DNA of 50,162 nucleotides from a virus: IMG/VR virus record IMGVR_UViG_3300045988_054790; one strand, 5' to 3'. A model generated the notes under the pieces. The model ran no database searches. It saw only the letters and a program-made list of their open reading frames with translations, and was not told the origin of the DNA. Position numbers and translations under genes: made by a program. Positions 6,232 through 48,658 of the stretch are shown piece by piece. Numbering within the stretch: the stretch's first letter is position 1; each line of letters starts with the position of its first letter.

Positions 6232-7612
6232 ATGCGCACAATTTTTCACTTCTTGTTTTGTCTAATTTTGACAAGCCAAAATGACCGCCGTCATATCCCA
6301 TGGTCGGCAGCCTGTGTATTTTCCTGTTCGGTTCTCCGTGTTCCGCTCTGCTCACGCCCTCTCCCCTCGAATGTCTGCTGTGCTGTTTCTTCCTGTTACG
6401 CGCTCAGTCCGATCTCTCGCAGGCACTCCCGGAACATGACCTCGCTGCTCTTGTACCCCAGTATCTTCCGGGGATAGTTGTTAATCCATTCCTCCGTGGC
6501 CGCGATCTCCGCCGCGCTGACCTTGGAGAAATCTGTGCCTTTCGGATGCCGCCGTCTGATCATGCTGTTGGCGTTCTCGTTGCTCCCCCGTTCCCACGAA
6601 GAATACGGATGGCAGTAGTATACCTTGGTGCGCGGGATGGTCTTATTGACGGCGCTCCGCTCCAGCACCTCCGCCGCCGAAAACTCCGAGCCGTTGTCAA
6701 AGGTGATGCTTTTGAAGATCGCCCGGAACCGCTTGGCACCGCATTTCCGCTCCAGCGCGTCCAGTGCCTTGACCACGGTTTCCGCCTTGCGGTTGGGTAT
6801 CGCTATAATGATGTCTTTCCGTGTCTTGCGCTCGTTCAGGGTCAGCAGGGCGCTGGTGGTCTTGCACTTGCCCTTGCCGCTGTACACGGTGTCGCCCTCC
6901 CAATGGCCGAACTCCTCCCGGCTCTCCACCTCCGGCGGGCGCCGTTCGATGCTATCGCCTGCGGATGCCCGCGCCTGATCTTTCTTGGTCTTGACCTTTT
7001 TGTATTTCTGCTTCACCTTGCCCCGGCGCGGCAAATCCACCTGTGTGATGTGGAGAAAGAGACCCTTTTTGATGTAGCTGTAGATCGTCGTCACGGAAAC
7101 AGAGGTCTCGAATGTCCGCCCCTCCAGCATTGCATATCCAAGGACAGCGGCAGGGCTGCACTCCCGCTCCGTGATTGTTGTCTCAATGTAGTTTGCCAGC
7201 TCGTGATCTTTTCCGATCTTCAAGTCCGGCCCTTTCTCCCGCAGATTGCTTTGGTATCGCGCCTCCGCGATGTCCGGGCTGTACGCCGTCACCATTTCCC
7301 ACGTCTCCCCGTCCAGCCGCTCATACTCCCCGCGCTTCAACTCCCGGTAGATGGTGGAAACGTGGACGCGCAGCTTCTCCGCGATCTGTGGCGGCTTCAA
7401 GCCCCTGCGCTGCCACTTCTCAATGCGCAGCCTGTCGTTCTTGGTCAGATGCTTAAATGTTCGTCCTCCGGTCTGCACCGTAAAGCCTCCTCTCTCGCTC
7501 ACCCGCGCAGGGCGGTGTCGGCGTTTCTGTTCCGCTCTGTCGCTTTTTGTCTTATTATGATACCCACAAAACCAGCATTGTGCAACAGCATTTTTTCGGC
7601 GTATGCGCACAA
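6232..7612 (-). mobile_element. IS30-family insertion sequence (ends approximate)
   Basis: Single DDE transposase gene flanked by the 10-bp direct repeat ATGCGCACAA (6232-6241 and 7603-7612). Terminal inverted repeats could not be defined by eye. Confidence 0.7.
6396..7478 (-). CDS. IS30-family DDE transposase (360 aa)
   Basis: GTG 7478 follows GAGGAGG. An HTH is followed by HWEGDTV, FDNGSEF and SNENANSMIRR, which are DDE-type motifs. Confidence 0.85.
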   Translation of the reverse strand: MQTGGRTFKHLTKNDRLRIEKWQRRGLKPPQIAEKLRVHVSTIYRELKRGEYERLDGETWEMVTAYSPDIAEARYQSNLREKGPDLKIGKDHELANYIETTITERECSPAAVLGYAMLEGRTFETSVSVTTIYSYIKKGLFLHITQVDLPRRGKVKQKYKKVKTKKDQARASAGDSIERRPPEVESREEFGHWEGDTVYSGKGKCKTTSALLTLNERKTRKDIIIAIPNRKAETVVKALDALERKCGAKRFRAIFKSITFDNGSEFSAAEVLERSAVNKTIPRTKVYYCHPYSSWERGSNENANSMIRRRHPKGTDFSKVSAAEIAATEEWINNYPRKILGYKSSEVMFRECLREIGLSA

Positions 7613-10207: not shown

Positions 10208-10390
10208 TCACTCCGGCCATTCGTCCCCGCCGATGGCCCTGCGGTATGCCTCGTCGGCCTCCGCGATCTCGTCTCTCCCGGTCACGGTGTCGCCCAGCTC
10301 CGCAAGTCGTGTCGCCAGCACCCGGACGGTACGCGCCTGCATTTCCACAAGCGCCTCCAGTTCTGCGATGATCTGCAAATGACTGCTCAC
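10208..10390 (-). CDS. Hypothetical small protein (about 60 aa, start uncertain)
   Basis: GTG 10390 overlaps the upstream stop (GTGA). The sequence looks coiled-coil-like. Confidence 0.35.
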   Translation of the reverse strand: MSSHLQIIAELEALVEMQARTVRVLATRLAELGDTVTGRDEIAEADEAYRRAIGGDEWPE

Positions 10391-11031
10391 GCCGTCGCCT
10401 CCGTCCAGCCGTATACCCCCGGTTCCCACACATTGGCATCCGCCGTTGATGTCCAATGCTTCCCATTGTGGCTCACCTTGTCGCCCTTTGCGTAAGCGTC
10501 ATGCGCCCCCACCGGCTTGCTCCATTCCGGCCATTCTTCCGCCGGGTCAGATGCCGCCGACCAAAGCGACACCGCCTTGTCCGGTTCCCATCCCGCCTGT
10601 GAGGTGTGCGCCTGTACGCATTTGTACAGCTTGTTCCCCCAGTTGCGTAGCTGCCCAACCGTGTAAGCAACGCCGGTCTGCCACGTTTCAAACAGGCTCT
10701 TGTGCTCCCCCGCAGTCACAGCGTCGATGCTTCCACTCTCCGCCAGCGTCACAAAGGCGATCTCCGTTGCCTTTCTCGTTTCTTCCGTCAACTTTGTCCT
10801 TTCCACATACCTGTAATGCTCGCTGATGGTATAGAAGTCGTACCGCGTCCCGTCCTCGTCCGTGTCGCTGTGATAGTGCCGGTCGATGCGGCAGCGGTCT
10901 GTGATGCTGCTGTCGTCGTACTCCCGCACTGTGGTCAGGTATTCGCCCTCCCGCAGCGCGGGGCCACCCACGATTTTCAGGTTTTCCCGTTCTACGCCGC
11001 CGATAACGCTTGTTCCGTAGACGTATTCCAT
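10387..11031 (-). CDS. Tail-associated protein with two CBM5/12-like carbohydrate-binding repeats
   Basis: ATG 11031 (MEYVYGTS...). The C-terminal repeats are YTVGQLRNWGNKLYKCVQAHTSQAGWEP and YAKGDKVSHNGKHWTSTADANVWEPGVYGW. Confidence 0.65.
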   Translation of the reverse strand: MEYVYGTSVIGGVERENLKIVGGPALREGEYLTTVREYDDSSITDRCRIDRHYHSDTDEDGTRYDFYTISEHYRYVERTKLTEETRKATEIAFVTLAESGSIDAVTAGEHKSLFETWQTGVAYTVGQLRNWGNKLYKCVQAHTSQAGWEPDKAVSLWSAASDPAEEWPEWSKPVGAHDAYAKGDKVSHNGKHWTSTADANVWEPGVYGWTEATA

Positions 11032-12001
11032 CTTGCCCGCTCCTTTCTTGCGTGTTCTCTGACCACGCATTTCAATTTCCGCTGCAAGCCCGTCTCCACA
11101 TAGTTCTGGAAAAAGTGGACGTGATTGCAGTGCTTCATCTGGCCCAGTCTGGATAAAAGCCCCTGCGCCAACGCTGGCTTGATCGCGTGGTGCCGCCGCA
11201 TGGTACGGCGGCAGACGGAAAGAGAATGTTTCAGGCGCACCATGTTTCGTTTCCGCAGCAGGGTATACCCTCGCCCGAAGCGATACCCCAGCGCCGCCGC
11301 AGCTTCCGCTTGTTCCGCCCGAACAAGGTAAAGTTGTCCATGTACCGCAGGTAGTGGTCGCACAGGCCGCTTTCCCGTATCAGCCGGTCAAGCGGTTGCA
11401 GCACCGTGTTGGCAAACCATTGGGAAAAGTAAGCGCCGATCAGAATGCCGTGCTTCATCAGCCGCTCGCATACCTCCAGCATCCGCCGGTCTTTCACCAG
11501 CCGCCGGAGCCGCTTCATCACCGTCTCCGCCGTCAAACTGTCGTAGAAATGGTGGATGTCCAGCTCCTCGGCGTACTTCGTCCCTTTTGGGTCTGTCCGC
11601 ATCCACTTCTTGATGGCCCGAACGCCGTAATGGATGCCCCGGTTTCGGATGCTCCCGCAGCAGAAATTGTCCATGCCCCGCATCATGATCGGCTCCAACA
11701 CCTGAATGACGGCGTGATGCACATACTGGTCAGGCCACAGTCTCGGCTCCGATATGTCCCGCCACTTGCCAGCGCTCTTGTCCCAGCGCCGCGCAAGCCT
11801 CGGCTCGTTCGCCTCGTAACCGCCTGTAATGATCTCTCGCAGCTCTTTTACATAGCGGTCAACGTCTGCCTCCACCCGTGCTACCGTCCGGTTTGGCCTG
11901 TGGTGCGGATGGAAGCGGTGTGTCACGTTCACGGCGAAGATCGCCAGCCGCAGGTTTTCTTCCGATACCAGCTTTGGAAATAGGTTGTTTGCTCGTTTCA
12001 T
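10992..12001 (-). pseudogene. DGR-type reverse transcriptase, apparently disrupted (two frames, YMDN box)
   Basis: ATG 12001 follows AAGGAGG. Motifs are ILIGAYFSQWFANTVL and RYMDNFTLFG. Frame 1 stops at 11231. The thumb-like LGYRFGRGYTLLRKRN... continues in the frame of ORF 10992-11363. Confidence 0.75.
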
Positions 12002-12180
12002 CAGGAATGTTTTCCTCCTTTTAGCCTCACGGTCTTTCCATCGCCCCCGCAGGTTGCGGAAGTGTACTAAACCGTGTCCTGATGGCTTATCTGCACCAAG
12101 GGGTGCCGAGGATGTCCGCGCCCCGGCGTGGGTCTTTGCGTTGCCGGGTGTGGAGGTGGGTAGCCAGTCCATAAAAGGAC

Positions 12181-12319
12181 GCGGCAGCCGATGTTCGCGT
12201 TCGAGTTGGACGCGCTGTTGTAGTTCACGTAGAACAGCCCGTGGTTCCCGTTCTGGTTATAGTTACCGCCGAAGTGCAGACACGGGTTGGAAGCATTGAA
12301 GTTCCAGTTATCCGCCGAA
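12181..12319 (-). repeat. DGR template repeat (TR)
   Basis: 139 bp colinear with 12482-12620. It differs at 15 positions, all T on the plus strand (A in the sense of the target gene). Confidence 0.9.
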
Positions 12320-12428
12320 CCAAGAAGCAAGGCACCGACTGCGTGCGCGGTCATCCCCTGTATTTTCAAGCCGCCTGTGCGGCTGAAAACCCGTTAGCCT
12401 TTTGTGCGGCCTGCGGGCCGCAGGATAC

Positions 12429-12454
12429 GCAGAGGGGGATGCGTCCCCCTCTGC
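12429..12454 (-). promoter_or_regulatory. GC-rich hairpin downstream of VR (candidate DGR target-recognition hairpin/terminator)
   Basis: 11-bp perfect stem GCAGAGGGGGA/TCCCCCTCTGC with a 4-nt loop. It lies 27 nt from the VR end and 9 nt past the stop codon. Confidence 0.6.
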
Positions 12455-12463
12455 ACTCCCCCG

Positions 12464-14926
12464 TCAGGGGAGTTTTTGGAGGCGGCAGCCGATGTCCGCG
12501 TTCGAGTTGGACGCGCTGCCGTAGTTCACGCAGAACAGCCCGCGGCCCCCGTCCTGGTAATAGCTACCGCCGAAGCGCAGACACGGGTAGGAAGCATTGA
12601 AGCTCCAGCGATCCGCCGAATACGTCGTCTCACTCCCGCCCGATGCCGTGGGATAGATAACCCATTCCAGACCGGCCACTGTTGCCACGGTAAAGGCGCT
12701 GGGCCATCCGCTCGACGGAACACCCACGGCGGTGCCGCCGCTGTTGTCGCTGAAACTGCTGGGCGTGTTGATGATGTTTAGGCCGTTGCTGTTGTAGTAG
12801 CAGCCGTCGCCCCAGTCATACACGTTGTCCCACAGACCCTCGATATAGCGGTACTGCGTACCGATACCATAGCTGTCCCGGCTTGCAAGCGTCGTTCCGG
12901 TGTGATAGGGCATACTGTCCGTATAGCCCATATTCTCCGTTGCGCTGTTGTTGCCGCAGCCCTTGCCGATGGTTTTCTGGCTGTTCCAGTCTGCGAACTC
13001 CACAAGGTACAGCATCCAGATCGTCATACGCATCTGAATGTCGCTCTGCCAGATGTTGCTCCCCAGATTGTGGATGCTCGTGCGGGCCGTGCTGCGTGTG
13101 ATATTCGCTTTCGGCTTTACGCCGGACTGGCTCTTGTAGTTGTTGGTGTTGCAGTGATAGCGGCCAATGTACACAATGTCCCGCTCTCCCTTGCCGTCCC
13201 CTCGGTCGGCATGGGCGGGGGAGACGTGAAAGCCGTCCGTTTCCTTATCCGCGATCTGGAGTTTCAGGCTGTTTCCGCTCTTTGTCCACTTGTACCAGAA
13301 TTTCGGGATAGCCACCAGCTCACCGGCCACCGCATCCGTCACGCGTACCATCCCGCTCCACGGGTACAGGTTGTCAAATGGGCTTCCGTAACTGGTTGCC
13401 CCCGCTCGGTACGGGGTCGGGTTCACGAAGCTGGCCGCCTCGTCTGTGCGGCTCCACACCGTTGTGCTGGTGCCGTCCCACACCACGCCGTAGATGTGCC
13501 GGTAGGCCAGCTTCACATTTACCGTCTGTCCGTCCGCCGTGATGGTTGCGGTATCCTCCGCCGTCTCTCCGTTCTTGGTGGCGGTGATGGTGTAGGTGCC
13601 GCTTTCCGTCACGGTGAAGTCCACTGTCCCCGTTGCAGATGCCGTCTTGCTCTGCGTCTTGCTCCCCTTGGTGCAGGTGACGGTGGAGCCGCTGTCAATG
13701 CTCACATGGATGGTGGCGGTGAAATAGGAGAGCGTCGCCGTGTACTGCTGCACCACAGAGACCGTCACCGTATCCGTGGCAGTCTGCCCGTTCTTGGTGG
13801 CCTTGATGGTGTATGTTCCGTAGTCCTCCACATCAAACGTCCATTTCCCGCCGCTCTCCGTTGCGGTGTATACCTTGGTTCCCAGCGTGGCCGTCACCGT
13901 GGAGCCGGTGGGCGCGGTCACAACGATCTGCGCCGTCATGCCTACCTGCGGCAGACTGTCCGCGCTGAGCTTGCCGTCTGCCCCCAGCGTCGGGATGCCG
14001 TTCGGCACGTTGATGGGGAGCTGATCGGTGTCCATCTTCCCGTCCGCGCCGAGACCTGCCACGCCGCCCGGCGTATTGACAGGGAGCTGGCCGGTGCCAA
14101 CCTTGCCGTCCGTTCCGATGCCCGCAACGCCGCCCGGCGTATTGATGGGGAGCTGGTCGGTGCCAACCTTGCTGTCCTCTCCCAGTCCGGCCACTCCGCC
14201 CGGTGTGTTGACAGGGAGCTGGCTGACCGGCACCTTTCCGTCTGTCCCCAGCCCCGCCTTTTTGGCAAGAGCCGCCGCCACCGCACCGCTGGTCAGCAGC
14301 TTGTCGCTGTTCTCCGTCGGCACCGTGTCGAACGTCTGCGCCGTAACGCCGCCCTTGCCGTCGCCTTTCAGGATACCGCTGGCGGTGATCTTGTCCTGCT
14401 TGTCCGTAATGGCCTGACGGATACCCTCGTGCGCGTTTTCATCCTCGTTGTGTGCCTTGATGGCAGCCGCCATGCTTTCTGCTGTCACCAGCGCCGAAGC
14501 GTCGATGGTCACCTGCAGCGTCCCGCCGCTTCCCGAAAACTCCAGCAACCCGTAGAACGTGTACACGTAGTCCGGCACGTCCGTCTTGCTGGGGATTTCC
14601 ACGCCCGCGTCCGTGTCCGTCTGAAACAGGGCGATCAGCCTTGCCGCGCCGCTGTCCAGCTTTGCCCAGATACCAAGCTGGTTCAGGGGGTATCCCGTCG
14701 CCAGTGGTGTCACTTGCAGTTGCAGCTTTTGCCCCTGCGCCGTTGTCTTGTTGGACAGGATGCTGACTGTCTGCTTTTCACTCACAAGCGCCGTCTGCGC
14801 CAGCATCGCCGCCTCGCTCACGCGGCCCGTTCCCGCCGCTGCGCGGGTGATGGTCAGCGTCTTTCCCGCCGTCCATTGTGCCAGCAGCTCACTGCCGCTG
14901 TTGGTGATAACGCCTTTCCATGCCAC
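12464..14926 (-). CDS. Tail fibre / receptor-binding protein with C-terminal C-type-lectin-like DGR variable region
   Basis: 820 aa. N-terminus MAWKGVITNSG..L is like tail-collar fibre proteins. It has GxDGK..QLP repeats and two Ig-like modules, and the C-terminus carries the VR. Confidence 0.9.
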   Translation of the reverse strand: MAWKGVITNSGSELLAQWTAGKTLTITRAAAGTGRVSEAAMLAQTALVSEKQTVSILSNKTTAQGQKLQLQVTPLATGYPLNQLGIWAKLDSGAARLIALFQTDTDAGVEIPSKTDVPDYVYTFYGLLEFSGSGGTLQVTIDASALVTAESMAAAIKAHNEDENAHEGIRQAITDKQDKITASGILKGDGKGGVTAQTFDTVPTENSDKLLTSGAVAAALAKKAGLGTDGKVPVSQLPVNTPGGVAGLGEDSKVGTDQLPINTPGGVAGIGTDGKVGTGQLPVNTPGGVAGLGADGKMDTDQLPINVPNGIPTLGADGKLSADSLPQVGMTAQIVVTAPTGSTVTATLGTKVYTATESGGKWTFDVEDYGTYTIKATKNGQTATDTVTVSVVQQYTATLSYFTATIHVSIDSGSTVTCTKGSKTQSKTASATGTVDFTVTESGTYTITATKNGETAEDTATITADGQTVNVKLAYRHIYGVVWDGTSTTVWSRTDEAASFVNPTPYRAGATSYGSPFDNLYPWSGMVRVTDAVAGELVAIPKFWYKWTKSGNSLKLQIADKETDGFHVSPAHADRGDGKGERDIVYIGRYHCNTNNYKSQSGVKPKANITRSTARTSIHNLGSNIWQSDIQMRMTIWMLYLVEFADWNSQKTIGKGCGNNSATENMGYTDSMPYHTGTTLASRDSYGIGTQYRYIEGLWDNVYDWGDGCYYNSNGLNIINTPSSFSDNSGGTAVGVPSSGWPSAFTVATVAGLEWVIYPTASGGSETTYSADRWSFNASYPCLRFGGSYYQDGGRGLFCVNYGSASNSNADIGCRLQKLP
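12482..12620 (-). repeat. DGR variable repeat (VR)
   Basis: Matches the TR except at adenine positions. Encodes the last ~46 residues (ADRWSFNASYPCLRFGGSYYQDGGRGLFCVNYGSASNSNADIGCRLQ). Confidence 0.9.
13946..14254 (-). repeat. Tandem ~57-bp coding repeats (19-aa GxDGKV..QLPxNTPGGVAG units) in the fibre gene
   Basis: About five consecutive units visible in both DNA and protein (residues ~225-327). Confidence 0.8.
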
Positions 14927-14944
14927 TTTTCGTTTCCTCCTGAC

Positions 14945-15538
14945 TTAGAATTTCGATGCGCTGCCGAAGTCAACCACCGCCGCGCCAGCCATAGCCGCGA
15001 TGCCGTAGGCCGTTGCGGTGCCGCCCGCATCGTAATATTCCACTTCCTCCAGATGTGCGCTGAACCGCTTGGCAGCGGCGAGCCGACGTTCGATCTCCGC
15101 GATGGTCATGGCGGCGAACTTCTGCCGCTCCTCCACGGTGGTGATGTTTACCCGCAGCCGGAATTTCCCGTGGGTGCCGCCATACTCAAACCATTCCTCC
15201 AGCTTTGTTCCCGGATAGATCGCGTCGGCCTGCGTTCTTGCAGCTCCCGCAGTTCCCATTGTTCGCCGGATATTCAGCGCCGTCTTAACGATGCGCCGCT
15301 TCTGCTCGATGTCATACCCTGTGTCGTACCAGTCGATCTTCCAGTTCACGGCCAGCGCATCCAGCACCTCCTCGGCCACGGTGTCGATGGCGGTATAGAT
15401 TTGGCTTGCGTCGATGTAATCCATCGTTTTCCGGTGCAGCTCCAGCATCGCCAGCGACAGCGCCCTGACCCACGGCTGCTCCGCAAGGACGTGGGGCAGG
15501 CCGTCCGCAATTTGCGCGTCTTTCAGCCCCTTAATCAT
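14945..15538 (-). CDS. Baseplate/tail protein, P2 gpI-like
   Basis: LPHVLAEQPWVRALSLAM...LAVNWKIDWYD...KRRIV pattern. ATG 15538 has a GGAGGG 7 nt upstream; the alternative ATG is at 15553. Confidence 0.7.
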   Translation of the reverse strand: MIKGLKDAQIADGLPHVLAEQPWVRALSLAMLELHRKTMDYIDASQIYTAIDTVAEEVLDALAVNWKIDWYDTGYDIEQKRRIVKTALNIRRTMGTAGAARTQADAIYPGTKLEEWFEYGGTHGKFRLRVNITTVEERQKFAAMTIAEIERRLAAAKRFSAHLEEVEYYDAGGTATAYGIAAMAGAAVVDFGSASKF

Positions 15539-34705: not shown

Positions 34706-34941
34706 TCCATCCACCGCCCTTTCCCCAGACGAACCGCTGTGAAGATTGCCACAATCGCCGTGACCAGCATACCCAGCATTTCCAACTGCGTGACTGCCAG
34801 AAAGCAGCACACCGCTGTCCATCCAGCTATGACCACCGCCGTCGGCACAATCCCCCACGGATGCGGAACCGCTAACACCCCACCCAGCAAAGCCGCAGCC
34901 AGCAACACGCCGCCCAGCAGGATTGTTAAAATGCTTTCCAT
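34702..34941 (-). CDS. Hypothetical membrane protein (three hydrophobic segments)
   Basis: 79 aa. TAATG overlap with the upstream gene. Confidence 0.5.
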   Translation of the reverse strand: MESILTILLGGVLLAAALLGGVLAVPHPWGIVPTAVVIAGWTAVCCFLAVTQLEMLGMLVTAIVAIFTAVRLGKGRWME

Positions 34942-35702
34942 TATGCCATCTCCTCTGCGTCCTCTCCATCCGTTTCCGGGTCTGGTACATCCACCGCGCC
35001 GGTGGCCCTCATGCGCAGCAGCTCCAGCTTCTCCCGCTCCAGCGTCATGCGCTTTTCGCTCTCCTCCAGCGCCCGCAGGCTGTCCGCGATCTTGGCGATG
35101 CGTCCCTGCACCTTGTATAGTGCCTCCTGCAATTTCAGCACACGGCTGAACGCGCTGTCCTTGCTGTACATTCCCATGCTCTGCAAGGCACCGTCCCGCT
35201 TGTCCTTGCCGCGCCCACCCGGCACCCTCATGTCCATCAGACTGTTGATGTACAGACTGTCCTCCGGGGCCGCCTCATACTCCGTGATTTTGGCGAGTAT
35301 CTTGTGTTCCCGGAATTTCAGGATTTGCATTTCATGCTCCAGCGCGGCGCGGCTTCCCAGCGGCGTTTGCTGTACGATCTCCCGCTCCGCGTCCGAGAGC
35401 ATATCAAAAAAGACGGTGCTGTATGCTCCGTCCTTTTCTGCGTTCTTATTTCCCGCCGGTGCGCCCGCATGGCTTCCGGCAGCGTTTTTCTTTCCCGCGC
35501 TGTTGCGGTTTCCCGGTTGACCGCCCCGCCGCTTCTTTGGCAGAGCTTCATCCCACTTGTCCGCTGCTTTCCAATTCCGCAGGGTTTGATAGCTCACGCC
35601 CTGCTCCTGCGCCAGCTCCCGCAGGCTTACTTCCTCGCCCGCCGCCTTGCGGGCGATGTATGCAGCCTTGGCGGTGTCGCGCTTCTCGCTCCGCTTCGGC
35701 AT
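34941..35702 (-). CDS. Terminase small-subunit-like / DNA-binding packaging protein
   Basis: ATG 35702 follows GGAGG. HTH (LRELAQEQGVSYQTLRNW), then G.P.GN.N..K repeats (GGQPGNRNSAGK, GAPAGNKNAEKDG). Confidence 0.55.
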   Translation of the reverse strand: MPKRSEKRDTAKAAYIARKAAGEEVSLRELAQEQGVSYQTLRNWKAADKWDEALPKKRRGGQPGNRNSAGKKNAAGSHAGAPAGNKNAEKDGAYSTVFFDMLSDAEREIVQQTPLGSRAALEHEMQILKFREHKILAKITEYEAAPEDSLYINSLMDMRVPGGRGKDKRDGALQSMGMYSKDSAFSRVLKLQEALYKVQGRIAKIADSLRALEESEKRMTLEREKLELLRMRATGAVDVPDPETDGEDAEEMA

Positions 35703-35904
35703 CCTCACACCTCCAGATAGTCGCGTGTCCCGCCCGGCCTATGAAAATACCCCGCGTAGGAACGCAGGGCTTCGACCGGCGCAGGACACGCCTATGGCAA
35801 AGCCCGCAGCGTTTCCGCCACGGGCTTTATTCCACGCTATGATATTATCACGAAAAACCTGCGGAAGTTGCTAATCCCGAAAAATTTTTTTCAAACCGTC
35901 CGCT

Positions 35905-36930
35905 TTAATATCCTCTAACCTCTTTCCTGCTCAAATAGAGGACGTGCGATATGTAGTATTCAAGTGCGCTCCCCGCATCGTGGTTGACCTGCTCCTGCAT
36001 CTCCCACATGACTTCTTTTTCATAATCAAAAAGCCCTGTCAATTCGGGGCATCTTATCGTTTCGCAGCACAGGCTTTCCACATCGTGCCTCAATGCCAGC
36101 CTATCTTCACATCCTCGCATCAATCCCGCGATCAGGCAGGCCCGCAGCGTGTCCTTGAAATTTCTTGTGTTCTCCAGTTCCCACATTGGATATGTCTCTA
36201 TGAACCTGAACTTGCAGCGAGGAATATCGTAATGTGCGAAAATGGTATGTTTCTTTCCCGAAGTATGCGCAAAGCCCCATTTTTTATCAAACTCTCTGTA
36301 GGCTGCAACAGCCCCGTCATAGTTTAGATTTTTGAGAGACATTGCGGCGCGGTGTATTGCCGTCTCCTCGTCCGAGCGGTACTCCAAGATGGCAGCCTTT
36401 CCTTTTTCCGTAAGTCGGAACAAATGCCCTTTGTGCTTCCTTCGGTCGATTTTAGCGCCGCCATCAAGCAGCTTTTTGGCGAGTGCGCATTTGTTTCCGC
36501 TTTTTGAAACGCCTCGCTCTTTGGCAATCTTCTCCATTTCCTCCCGCGTATAAAGCTCTGCCATCTCCTCGCAAGGCTCCAGCGGTGCGATCATACCGCC
36601 TTTCCGCAGGGCTGAATAAGCCATACTCTTTTTCCCAAAGTCCAGATAGGAAATGTCCTCGTCCGAAAACGGTCTTTTCCTCTCCGTGTTAAACCAGAGT
36701 ATTGCGTATACAAGCCCGCGTGGGTCAGCGTGTCCCGCGCCCTCCAGCGTCTCGAATGTGGGTAGCCCTGCCGGATATAGCCATTCTCGCTCGACCGTCA
36801 TATCTTTTTGGCGGTATTCCTCCGCAGGAGTTTCATATTCGACATCTGCTTTTTGTCCTTCCTTGGCTTTCCCTGCGCCGCTGTTAAATCCGTCCCGGAA
36901 CGCCCTTACCAATTCCCGCAACACTCCCAT
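35905..36930 (-). CDS. Hypothetical protein, low-GC accessory gene in the repressor position
   Basis: 341 aa. AGGAGGG RBS. Visibly AT-richer than its flanks. It has a SAP-like segment (EEMEKIAKERGVSKSGNKCALAKKLLDGG) and a possible winged-helix segment (LFRLTEKGKAAILEY). Confidence 0.75.
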   Translation of the reverse strand: MGVLRELVRAFRDGFNSGAGKAKEGQKADVEYETPAEEYRQKDMTVEREWLYPAGLPTFETLEGAGHADPRGLVYAILWFNTERKRPFSDEDISYLDFGKKSMAYSALRKGGMIAPLEPCEEMAELYTREEMEKIAKERGVSKSGNKCALAKKLLDGGAKIDRRKHKGHLFRLTEKGKAAILEYRSDEETAIHRAAMSLKNLNYDGAVAAYREFDKKWGFAHTSGKKHTIFAHYDIPRCKFRFIETYPMWELENTRNFKDTLRACLIAGLMRGCEDRLALRHDVESLCCETIRCPELTGLFDYEKEVMWEMQEQVNHDAGSALEYYISHVLYLSRKEVRGY

Positions 36931-39272: not shown

Positions 39273-39366
39273 CCCAGCGCAAGCGGATACTTTAGCAGGG
39301 CTGCACCGCACAAAGCAACCCAGCCCCAGAAGCAAAACCCAAAAACAAGATCAGGAGGAACACAAG

Positions 39367-40284: not shown

Positions 40285-40383
40285 CAAAACCCAAGCCGAA
40301 ACGGCCCGCCGGGGCCGTCCGCCGGGAACGGCCGCCCGGTGCTGATGATGGCAGGCCGAACACAAAAACGAGGAGGCAACAAA

Positions 40384-40790: not shown

Positions 40791-40883
40791 CCCCCCGCCG
40801 CCGGACACCTTGGACGGGCCGCACCGAACAAAGCGACCCGACCCCACGCACAAAACCAAATCACAAATCAGGAGGTACACAAA

Positions 40884-47487: not shown

Positions 47488-48264
47488 TCAGATTGTCGTT
47501 TTCTCCGCCAAGATCGGCGCGAGCATCTTTTCTCTCGCCGCCTCGTAGAAACTCTTGTCCACCTCGAACCCGTAGGCGCTGCGCCCCAGCTCGTAGGCGG
47601 CGCGTAATGTGGTGCCGCTCCCGGCCACCGGGTCGATCACCACGTCGCCGGGGTCTGTGAACACTTCAATCAGGCGTTTCAACACGCCCACCGGCTTCTG
47701 CGTGGGATGTATCTTCGGGTACTCCTTTCGGCTGTCCCGCTCCCAGCGGGACCAGTCAAAAACCATGTGCTTTTCGCCGTCCTCGCCGACGTTGCGGAAC
47801 TTCGGCAGCTTGTCCCGGTAGAGGACGACCGCAAATTCCGTCGCGCCCACGATCTTCATGTTGGCTTTTAATACCTGCGCGGAATAGTTCTTGCAGAAAA
47901 ATAGCGGATAGCTTTTTGCAAATCCGTACCGCTTTCCGTACTCGATCACGGTCTGCATCTGCTCAAAGGCGCAGAATACGATCATGGCAGGGGCCTGTCC
48001 CTTTTCCTTTGGCTCCTTTTTCAGCAGCCTGTTGCAGAAGTGCATATACTCCGCGATCTTGAATGTACCGTCCGTGTGGAAAAAGCTCTGCTTTGCCAGC
48101 TTACTTTCCCCGTTCTTGTTGTCGCCGCCCTGATACCACATGGGATTGCTGGCATAGGCATCCGCGCCGATGTTGTACGGGATGTCCGCGATCACAAGCT
48201 GGGCTTTCGGCACATTGTACCGCTTGAAATTCTGAAAATTATCGTGGTATAGCTCGCATTTCAT
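47488..48264 (-). CDS. DNA methyltransferase, beta-class (probable N6-adenine/N4-cytosine)
   Basis: LVIADIPYN (motif IV variant) lies upstream of VIDPVAGSGTT (motif I). ATG 48264. Confidence 0.8.
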   Translation of the reverse strand: MKCELYHDNFQNFKRYNVPKAQLVIADIPYNIGADAYASNPMWYQGGDNKNGESKLAKQSFFHTDGTFKIAEYMHFCNRLLKKEPKEKGQAPAMIVFCAFEQMQTVIEYGKRYGFAKSYPLFFCKNYSAQVLKANMKIVGATEFAVVLYRDKLPKFRNVGEDGEKHMVFDWSRWERDSRKEYPKIHPTQKPVGVLKRLIEVFTDPGDVVIDPVAGSGTTLRAAYELGRSAYGFEVDKSFYEAAREKMLAPILAEKTTI

Positions 48265-48437
48265 ATCGTTTTCTCCCTGCGCCGCCGCATCCGGTAGCAC
48301 AGCTTCCCGCACCTGCGGCAGCAGATGTAATTCGTGTGATACTTCCCGCCGTGCCGGTCGCTCCGGCGGCGTGTGACCTCTATGTATTCCGTCTTGCACG
48401 GGCTGTGCAGCCCCAAGCGGCAAAGCAGCGGCTTCAT
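48261..48437 (-). CDS. Small zinc-ribbon-like protein (58 aa), not in ORF track
   Basis: My translation is MKPLLCRLGLHSPCKTEYIEV...NYICCRRCGKLCYRMRRRREKTI. ATGA overlaps at both ends. Confidence 0.45.
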   Translation of the reverse strand: MKPLLCRLGLHSPCKTEYIEVTRRRSDRHGGKYHTNYICCRRCGKLCYRMRRRREKTI

Positions 48438-48658
48438 CGCCTGTCACCTCTGATTTTCCGCTCGAACTGCTCGATTTCTCCCACGATCAGCCAGCAGAGC
48501 CACGCCAGCACAACGCCGTCAACCCTGCTATCATGCACGATGCCCTCAAAGACGCATTCTGCGCCAATCCAGCACAGGCCGAGCATCACATACAGGAACA
48601 GAAACAGCAGCCCCTTTGCCGCCGCGTTCAGAATACGCTCTGTTGTTCTCCCACTCAT
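48434..48658 (-). CDS. Hypothetical membrane protein (74 aa)
   Basis: ATG 48658 forms an ATGA overlap. Two hydrophobic segments. Confidence 0.5.
   Translation of the reverse strand: MSGRTTERILNAAAKGLLFLFLYVMLGLCWIGAECVFEGIVHDSRVDGVVLAWLCWLIVGEIEQFERKIRGDRR

Follow-up and report, generated by a model that had tools for sequence, protein, structure and literature searches.

Analysis of the window, a 50,162-nt stretch of viral DNA from IMG/VR record IMGVR_UViG_3300045988_054790, indicated that a region of its minus strand is very probably a diversity-generating retroelement (DGR) of the accessory-free layout, located among the tail genes of a temperate phage that has a contractile tail and infects Oscillospiraceae of the human gut. 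In this region, a tail fibre gene ending in a variable repeat (VR) is followed by a template repeat (TR), an RT-18 RNA motif, and a reverse transcriptase (RT) gene. A DGR on a tail fibre is ordinary, and such elements are abundant in the human gut; the parts of interest are the YMDN catalytic box of the RT and the scarcity of A-to-C substitutions in the accompanying VRs. An earlier note on this DNA, made from the sequence alone, had placed a DGR-type RT gene by the TR. Such a gene is present 179 nt on, but the frameshift within it, its YMDN box, the RT-18 motif, and the scarce A-to-C changes had been missed.

The repeat pair proposed in the earlier note, a TR at 12181-12319 and a VR at 12482-12620, was reproduced by re-alignment over 139 nt with zero indels, together with the peptides that had been translated from both repeats. 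The two sequences differ at the same 15 positions as reported (offsets 15, 38, 39, 50, 62, 65, 66, 72, 78, 83, 95, 108, 122, 128, and 129). Each mismatch is a T on the plus strand, which the minus-strand genes read as A, so that 15 of the 35 adenines are affected and no other base differs in the 139 nt. In the sense strand, the changes found in the VR are A>G at 12 positions, A>T at two, and A>C at one, and the hypergeometric probability that 15 of 15 differences all fall on one base is 6.7e-11. A repeat search and re-alignment extended the homology by a further 4 nt (12177-12180 and 12478-12481). A non-adenine mismatch, which the earlier note had regarded as fatal to its proposal, is absent from the 139-nt core and occurs once, in this extension, where the TR has G and the VR has C in the sense strand (12180/12481). 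The same G/C difference is present in every relative with the same TR, and it behaves like a marker of the initiation of mutagenic homing site and its TR counterpart (IMH/IMH*), unlike a product of mutagenesis.

With the extension included, the TR spans 12177-12319 and the VR spans 12478-12620 (core, 12482-12620), both on the minus strand. Every one of the 35 TR adenines occupies the first or second position of its codon, and 13 TR codons are AAC or AAT. Each of the 12 codons changed by adenine substitutions, and also the codon that carries the IMH marker, is altered non-synonymously. The 3' end of the VR (12478-12492, minus strand; sense TCGGCTGCCGCCTCC) is an A-free, GC-rich, IMH-like stretch of 15 nt, and the corresponding IMH*-like end of the TR (12177-12191, minus strand) differs from it by the G/C at 12180. 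Beyond these 15-nt ends, the TR and VR sequences diverge, and the sequence 3' of the TR differs from that 3' of the VR. Directly downstream of the VR are four GC-rich hairpins (12362-12473, minus strand), including an 11-bp stem formed by GCAGAGGGGGA and TCCCCCTCTGC. The DNA fold of 12320-12490 has an energy of -48.5 kcal/mol (z = -4.98), and none of 200 shuffles was as stable. GC-rich inverted repeats are thus found after the VR only, which is the arrangement of IMH and IMH* in DGRs, and the function of these ends is putative. The hairpins may be a cruciform or target-recognition element, or the terminator of the fibre gene. One of these hairpins (12363-12390) gave a weak match to CRISPR-DR4 (20 bits, below the cut-off of 35; E 0.17), which was dismissed as chance. 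An open reading frame (ORF) of 100 aa across the TR (12067-12369) has no family match and was set aside as merely the open frame of the TR. No second VR was found within the window.

The DGR target gene encodes an 820-aa tail fibre (12464-14926, minus strand; PHROG tail fiber at the N-terminus and tail protein at the C-terminus) and comes after the Baseplate_J and Tail_P2_I genes. In agreement with the earlier note, the VR lies at the C-terminus of this protein, where it occupies its last 47 codons (770-816 of 820). Pfam and NCBIfam searches of the fibre detected no FGE-sulfatase or lectin domain and gave only a sub-threshold CarboxypepD_reg match, and a PDB sequence search with the fibre C-terminus gave no match; the fold was therefore taken from modelling. 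The AlphaFold2 model of the C-terminal 350 aa had a mean predicted local distance difference test score (pLDDT) of 94.8, and its best structural matches by Foldseek were TaqVP (5vf4; E 2e-8), Mtd (1yu4), TvpA (2y3c), and FGE. The predicted fold of the C-terminal ~350 aa is hence the C-type-lectin/FGE fold known from DGR variable proteins, which is the fold that the earlier note had suggested looking for. Unlike these proteins, with which it shares 10-14% sequence identity, the domain here is fused to a long P2-type tail fibre. The fibre gene also contains 66-nt tandem repeats at 13970-14233 (minus strand), with units like GTDGKVxxxQLPVNTPGGVAGL.

The RT gene begins at the ATG at 12001, preceded by an AGGAGG ribosome-binding site. 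The distances given in the earlier note, 162 nt between VR and TR and 179 nt from the TR to this ATG, were confirmed. The reading frame ends at 11231 after 256 codons. Its 5' part (11231-12001, minus strand) consists of 236 codons for the fingers and palm, including the YMDN box, followed by 20 out-of-frame codons and a stop. The 3' part, which encodes the end of the palm and the thumb (10992-11292, minus strand), can be read in another frame only, where its translation equals residues ~268-367 of P0007, the intact RT protein. DNA comparison with otherwise almost identical relatives demonstrated that the RT gene in the window lacks 94 nt between GGCGGC microrepeats, with the junction located at 11287-11298, and that the thumb domain is consequently out of frame. 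Consistent with this, the Pfam RVT_1 match ends at profile position 167 of 205, and the closest database RT proteins are 367 aa long and 100% identical over the first 236 residues (92% of the query).

The intact RT is of the DGR type in both sequence and fold. Its best PDB sequence match is the Bordetella RT, bRT (8ub7; E 2e-15; ~23% identity), and its AlphaFold2 model (pLDDT 94.8) superimposes on bRT in the DGR ribonucleoprotein with template modelling scores of 0.79/0.88 and a root-mean-square deviation of 2.3 Å, with group II intron RTs ranking behind. The IGxxxSQ motif is also present, as IGAYFSQWFAN aligns with IGSLTSQLFAN of bRT. The failure to match DGR RTs that the earlier note had considered damaging was therefore not observed. 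Below-cut-off NCBIfam matches to group II intron, retron, and Drt RTs rank under the bRT match and were rejected as assignments.

The catalytic box of this RT is YMDN, and its Asn (residue 223) aligns opposite D216 of bRT, the second Asp of YMDD. The catalytic residues of bRT are D138, D215, and D216 (bioRxiv 10.1101/2023.10.23.563531), and both YxDD aspartates were reported to be 100% conserved in the DGR RTs surveyed in 2012 (PMC3521204). The RT described here does not have both aspartates; since all other features of DGRs were found, YMDN is treated as a family variant and not as a reason for exclusion from DGRs. Of the 120 closest proteins, which extend down to 58% identity, 113 have YMDN or YIDN, as do all but two of 80 IMG/VR loci (one has CMDN, and the other is a truncated ORF in which the motif is unreadable). 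Among representatives at 30-58% identity, ~29 of 125 have xxDN and the remainder xxDD. Purifying selection acts on the RT (dN/dS ~0.06-0.13 in comparisons with unsaturated dS), and both AAC and AAT are used for the Asn. We found no mention of YMDN or YxDN in any RT in the open-access literature, which is absence of evidence only. The nearest RT overall in GenBank phages belongs to an unannotated faecal clone (51% identity; YMDN), and among named, cultured phages the closest is encoded by Lactobacillus phage LBR48 (35% identity); it has NIDD and keeps both aspartates. The Tyr of the box is also plastic in this RT lineage, with QMDN, HMDN, NMDD, and NVDD found in P0245, P0270, P0274, P0320, and others, besides the NIDD of LBR48.

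The spacer between TR and RT contains an RT-18 RNA (Rfam RF03021; 12015-12105, minus strand) that ends at the ribosome-binding site of the RT gene. The match scored 79.4 bits against a gathering score of 41.3, and RT-18 occupies the same position in 28 of 29 loci of the YMDN clade and in 15 of 16 loci of sister DGRs whose RTs have YxDD. The idea that RT-18 is specific to the YMDN clade was accordingly rejected. Over 22 DGR loci, 96.9% of the cells in the RT-18 helices pair, and compensatory changes were found in 14 of 20 pairs; 0 of 500 shuffles reached the observed value, and slid controls paired in 33-41% of cells. The paper that named RT-1 to RT-19 linked only RT-10 to the BPP-1 DGR and speculated that others serve DGRs (Weinberg et al., 2017; PMC5737381). 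With a full-length match, covariation, and a position immediately upstream of an RT gene, as in the published motif, RT-18 is the TR-RT spacer RNA of a large Avd-less DGR lineage. In Bordetella, the Sp RNA envelops bRT and supplies the priming adenosine (bioRxiv 10.1101/2023.10.23.563531); by analogy, RT-18 probably docks the RT and positions the primer.

A small hairpin at 12159-12180 (minus strand) may be relevant to priming. In this hairpin, the GUCC that ends the TR can pair with a GGAC lying six bases further downstream in the spacer, followed by UGGCUACC. By inspection of 30 loci, a GCUA[AC]C-like motif and similar small hairpins recur there in distant relatives, and the GUCC/GGAC hairpin could be a candidate template:primer duplex. 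RNAalifold on alignments from the TR end to the RT did not recover this TR:spacer duplex, though RT-18 was recovered, and the fold of the whole TR-plus-spacer RNA was not significant (z = -0.52). A promoter scan of 10900-12700 detected no promoter, and the two terminator-like sites found were no more than in shuffles.

The absence of Avd stated in the earlier note was upheld: none of 38 small ORFs of the window has a Pfam match to the Avd family, and the gaps of 162 and 179 nt could not accommodate a gene. In 64 related loci, no conserved small basic ORF was found near the RT, and the only conserved RT neighbours are a CBM5/12 protein, an 82-aa acidic protein, holins, and an endolysin. The YxDD sisters (IMG/VR L108-L263) have the same VR-TR-RT-18-RT layout with equally tight spacing (median gaps of 106 and 159 nt). 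The element thus has the target-TR-RT order without avd, HRDC, MSL, or CH1 that characterizes accessory-free DGRs (Architecture A1), and it lacks the avd of Architecture B. In a curated set, 29% of the DGRs are accessory-free, and a lineage of RTs without avd has been reported (Wu et al., 2018; PMC5758913); therefore, the Avd-less layout itself was already known. The window element resembles Architecture A1 and RT Lineage 3 of that study also in its single adjacent target and its phage association. The main text of the study mentions neither YMDN nor a link to RT-18.

Variation among close relatives was examined to assess diversification. P0007 is encoded on 14 contigs, and in the ten loci compared (L001-L010), the TR is 100% identical to that of the window. 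Seven of the ten loci span the fibre end and carry five further VR alleles, or six with that of the window, in phages that are 99.5% identical elsewhere. Among those VRs, 30 of 33 variable positions are TR adenines. Between the window and L001, there are 27 genuine differences over 3.6 kb, of which 22 are in the 143-nt VR and five in the other ~3.4 kb of fibre, spacer, and RT (three extra mismatches at the deletion boundary are alignment artefacts and were left out). This corresponds to a ~100-fold excess of differences in the VR over flanking DNA. Since near-identical phages with an invariant TR have differing VRs, the lineage diversifies.

The substitution spectrum was determined in a wider clade of 80 IMG/VR loci, whose RTs have 53-100% identity and which contain 45 distinct VRs. 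The median gaps are 158 nt between VR and TR and 175 nt between TR and RT. There are 674 adenine substitutions and 60 others (674/734), the latter mostly the fixed IMH marker. Over all adenines, A>G accounts for 442 changes, A>T for 219, and A>C for 13 (2%). At the first A of 514 AAC codons, the counts are 141 A>G, 144 A>T, and one A>C, and at the second A they are 192, 23, and one, respectively; the pattern holds in each identity band. By contrast, the YxDD sisters, which keep both aspartates, showed 356 A>C among 1617 changes in 105 distinct VRs (22%), and 29% at the second A of AAC (13/674 against 356/1617; Fisher P = 1e-42). Because both groups share layout, spacer RNA, and habitat, the scarcity of A>C goes with the YMDN clade, and it likely has a mutational cause. 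Misincorporation of G by bRT makes up 22-26% of its errors and is raised in NAC contexts (PMC12875486); the values in the YxDD sisters are similar to this, and the near absence of A>C in the YMDN clade is a further difference from bRT. Four close relatives (L028, L035, L037, and L052) have an intact RT and a TR with no VR within the flank, where the fibre end may be missing or the assembly broken.

It is exceedingly improbable that the TR and VR arose when part of the fibre 3' end was duplicated in the ordinary way and the copies then diverged through point mutation or strand-biased deamination. The 12 A>G transitions among 15 changes are what such an origin could yield, but confinement of all 15 differences to one base type (P 7e-11), the invariance of the TR beside a hypervariable VR, the common A>T transversions in relatives, and the DGR-type RT and RT-18 RNA adjacent to the pair all argue for a DGR. 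The points that do weigh against a functional DGR with a YMDN enzyme concern the active site, the alleles, and the copy in the window. An RT without the second Asp of YxDD would be expected to be inactive, to judge by other RTs such as that of HIV-1 (D186) and TERT, in which this residue is catalytic. In addition, codon 15 in the VRs of L001-L008 is TAC or TGC against CAC in the TRs of the same loci (T in place of C; VR sense position 44), and the activity of the lineage is presumed from natural alleles. The spectra, too, come from alleles that passed selection. It could be argued that the YMDN protein is the relic of an RT without catalytic activity, or an RNA-binding factor, and that the VRs owe their diversity to a canonical YxDD DGR RT acting in trans from elsewhere in the host or from a co-resident phage, as D216 is catalytic in bRT (bioRxiv 10.1101/2023.10.23.563531), DGR components can work in trans (PMC5758913), and the T in the VRs of L001-L008 is found in another TR allele. 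TR codon 15 is indeed polymorphic in the population, with TAC in the close relatives L014 and L019 and CAC in L001-L008, and the T could reflect homing in trans from this second TR allele, recombination between co-resident DGR phages, or a recurrent non-adenine error; the VR of the window is free of this conflict. However, the YMDN RT adjoins an adenine-specific TR/VR pair wherever the flank sufficed and a VR was found, across 53-100% identity. It is, moreover, a full-length ORF under purifying selection, with its Asn kept via both codons, and the 2% A>C in VRs beside it, against 22% in YxDD DGRs, is difficult to reconcile with diversification by YxDD enzymes. A relic served in trans is thus quite improbable, and the YMDN enzyme would appear, from natural alleles and selection, to be active.

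For the copy in the window, the RT ORF is not intact, and this raises the question of whether the 94-nt deletion is genuine. An intact and autonomous DGR, in which the gap is an artefact of assembly or gap closing with contig ends joined on a 6-nt overlap, would account for a public scaffold of the same phage (L011) that has 100% identical flanks and 100 N exactly at the junction, where the window joins both ends on GGCGGC. The junction is also absent from IMG/VR and JGI metagenome contigs, among which the intact gene occurs in dozens. On the other hand, a contig from an independent ENA assembly (L105; ERR2017783 of PRJEB21528, MEGAHIT k99) is 100% identical to window positions 12451-11222 and crosses the junction, and a microhomology of 6-12 nt cannot make a false join at k = 99. 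The contig ends of L011, furthermore, are the exact points at which intact and deleted alleles would diverge and re-converge, as a graph bubble gives. An artefact is therefore rather unlikely, and we consider it likely that the deletion is a real allele. Because the deletion frameshifts the RT before the thumb, the window copy is most likely non-autonomous; if real, a copy without the thumb domain is very probably inactive. The VR of the window would then be the frozen product of earlier homing from the same TR allele (codon 15 CGC, derived from CAC). The same VR allele was found in scaffolds of two cohorts, which fits a frozen VR, yet another allele, beside an intact RT, is common to three samples. 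An intact co-resident copy might still act on the cassette in trans and diversify it. The truncated RT also illustrates that a clean TR/VR pair is no proof of a still-autonomous cassette.

For intact members of this DGR lineage, the following mechanism is proposed. By homology with the Bordetella phage DGR, a transcript of the TR and the spacer including RT-18 would be bound by the RT. By analogy, the RT would copy the TR into complementary DNA (cDNA), probably primed from the RNA itself, with misincorporation opposite template adenines, and the cDNA would then replace the VR, which is presumably marked as the recipient by its GC-rich IMH-like end and the hairpins after it. Up to 13 Asn codons and other adenine-bearing codons would be recoded on the ligand-binding face of the C-type-lectin fibre tip, and receptor specificity would change as a result. 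Natural alleles suggest that the YMDN RT works without Avd and that the bases it places opposite template A are C or A, with G exceedingly rare. We infer the cis-priming, the role of RT-18, the effect of the Asn, and the loss of activity of the window copy from these comparisons. We tentatively propose, at somewhat less than even confidence, that the Avd-less phage lineage uses RT-18 as the built-in partner of its RT and that the YMDN clade within it retains an active mutagenic RT with a narrowed spectrum.

The prototype for comparison is the DGR of Bordetella phage BPP-1 (mtd-avd-TR-brt). Both have the VR at the C-terminus of a C-type-lectin receptor-binding protein, adenine-only differences, a GC-rich IMH-like end with an inverted repeat after the VR (PMC5758913), and a structured TR-RT spacer RNA, and the RT described here is closest to bRT. 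Unlike BPP-1, the window element has no avd, its spacer RNA is RT-18 and not RT-10, and its catalytic box is YMDN and not YMDD.

If true, the narrowed spectrum would restrict an AAC codon to ~9 reachable amino acids instead of 15, and, should the Asn be its cause, one residue of the active site would tune the mutations made by a natural hypermutator. The YMDN clade is a natural experiment by which a link between active-site chemistry and adenine-specific infidelity can be probed, with a bearing on DGR mutagenesis tools. RT-18, an orphan Rfam motif, is now assigned, and it offers an RNA partner for Avd-independent retrohoming, which was left open by Wu et al. (2018; PMC5758913). A cultured isolate, Oscillospiraceae bacterium CM74B_53B (L019; JAWQDD010000004), carries an intact copy, and experiments are therefore feasible.

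The source of the window is a P2-like contractile-tailed phage. The window encodes a large terminase, portal, sheath, tube, tape measure, and gpU/gpX/gp25-like proteins, followed by Baseplate_J, Tail_P2_I, and then the 820-aa fibre, with the CBM5/12 protein, holins, and endolysin beyond the DGR. The host is Oscillospiraceae of the human gut, as relatives sit in metagenome-assembled genomes of human-gut Oscillospiraceae and in the cultured isolate mentioned above, and the phage was judged to be temperate because some related loci run into host genes. Megablast of 10300-15000 gave no match among GenBank phages. The gene for the two-module CBM5/12 protein (10387-11031, minus strand; Pfam CBM_5_12, E 5e-16) does not encode an Avd. 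It begins ~40 nt before the intact RT gene ends (L001 7065-7709), and 36 of 64 related loci keep this overlap; the product could be a second protein for receptor binding or fibre association, with its translation coupled to that of the RT.

Several other features of the window were recorded. An IS30-like transposase gene (HTH_38 and rve; 6396-7610, minus strand) lies beside the lysis module and is found at the same place in L001-L007. Three Rfam matches at gathering level, two to RAGATH-5 and one to the type II hammerhead ribozyme (39283-39335, 40294-40360, and 40801-40853, all plus strand), fall within 1.6 kb in the early or regulatory part of the phage. A DUF3800-VIII RNA motif (35724-35790, minus strand; 69.4 bits) is located just upstream of a small-terminase-like gene (34941-35708, minus strand), and the adjoining 341-aa ORF (35905-36930, minus strand) has no Pfam or PHROG match. 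Genes for a C5 cytosine methylase and an N6/N4 DNA methylase are located near the two ends of the window, at 716-1870 and 47488-48447, respectively, both on the minus strand.

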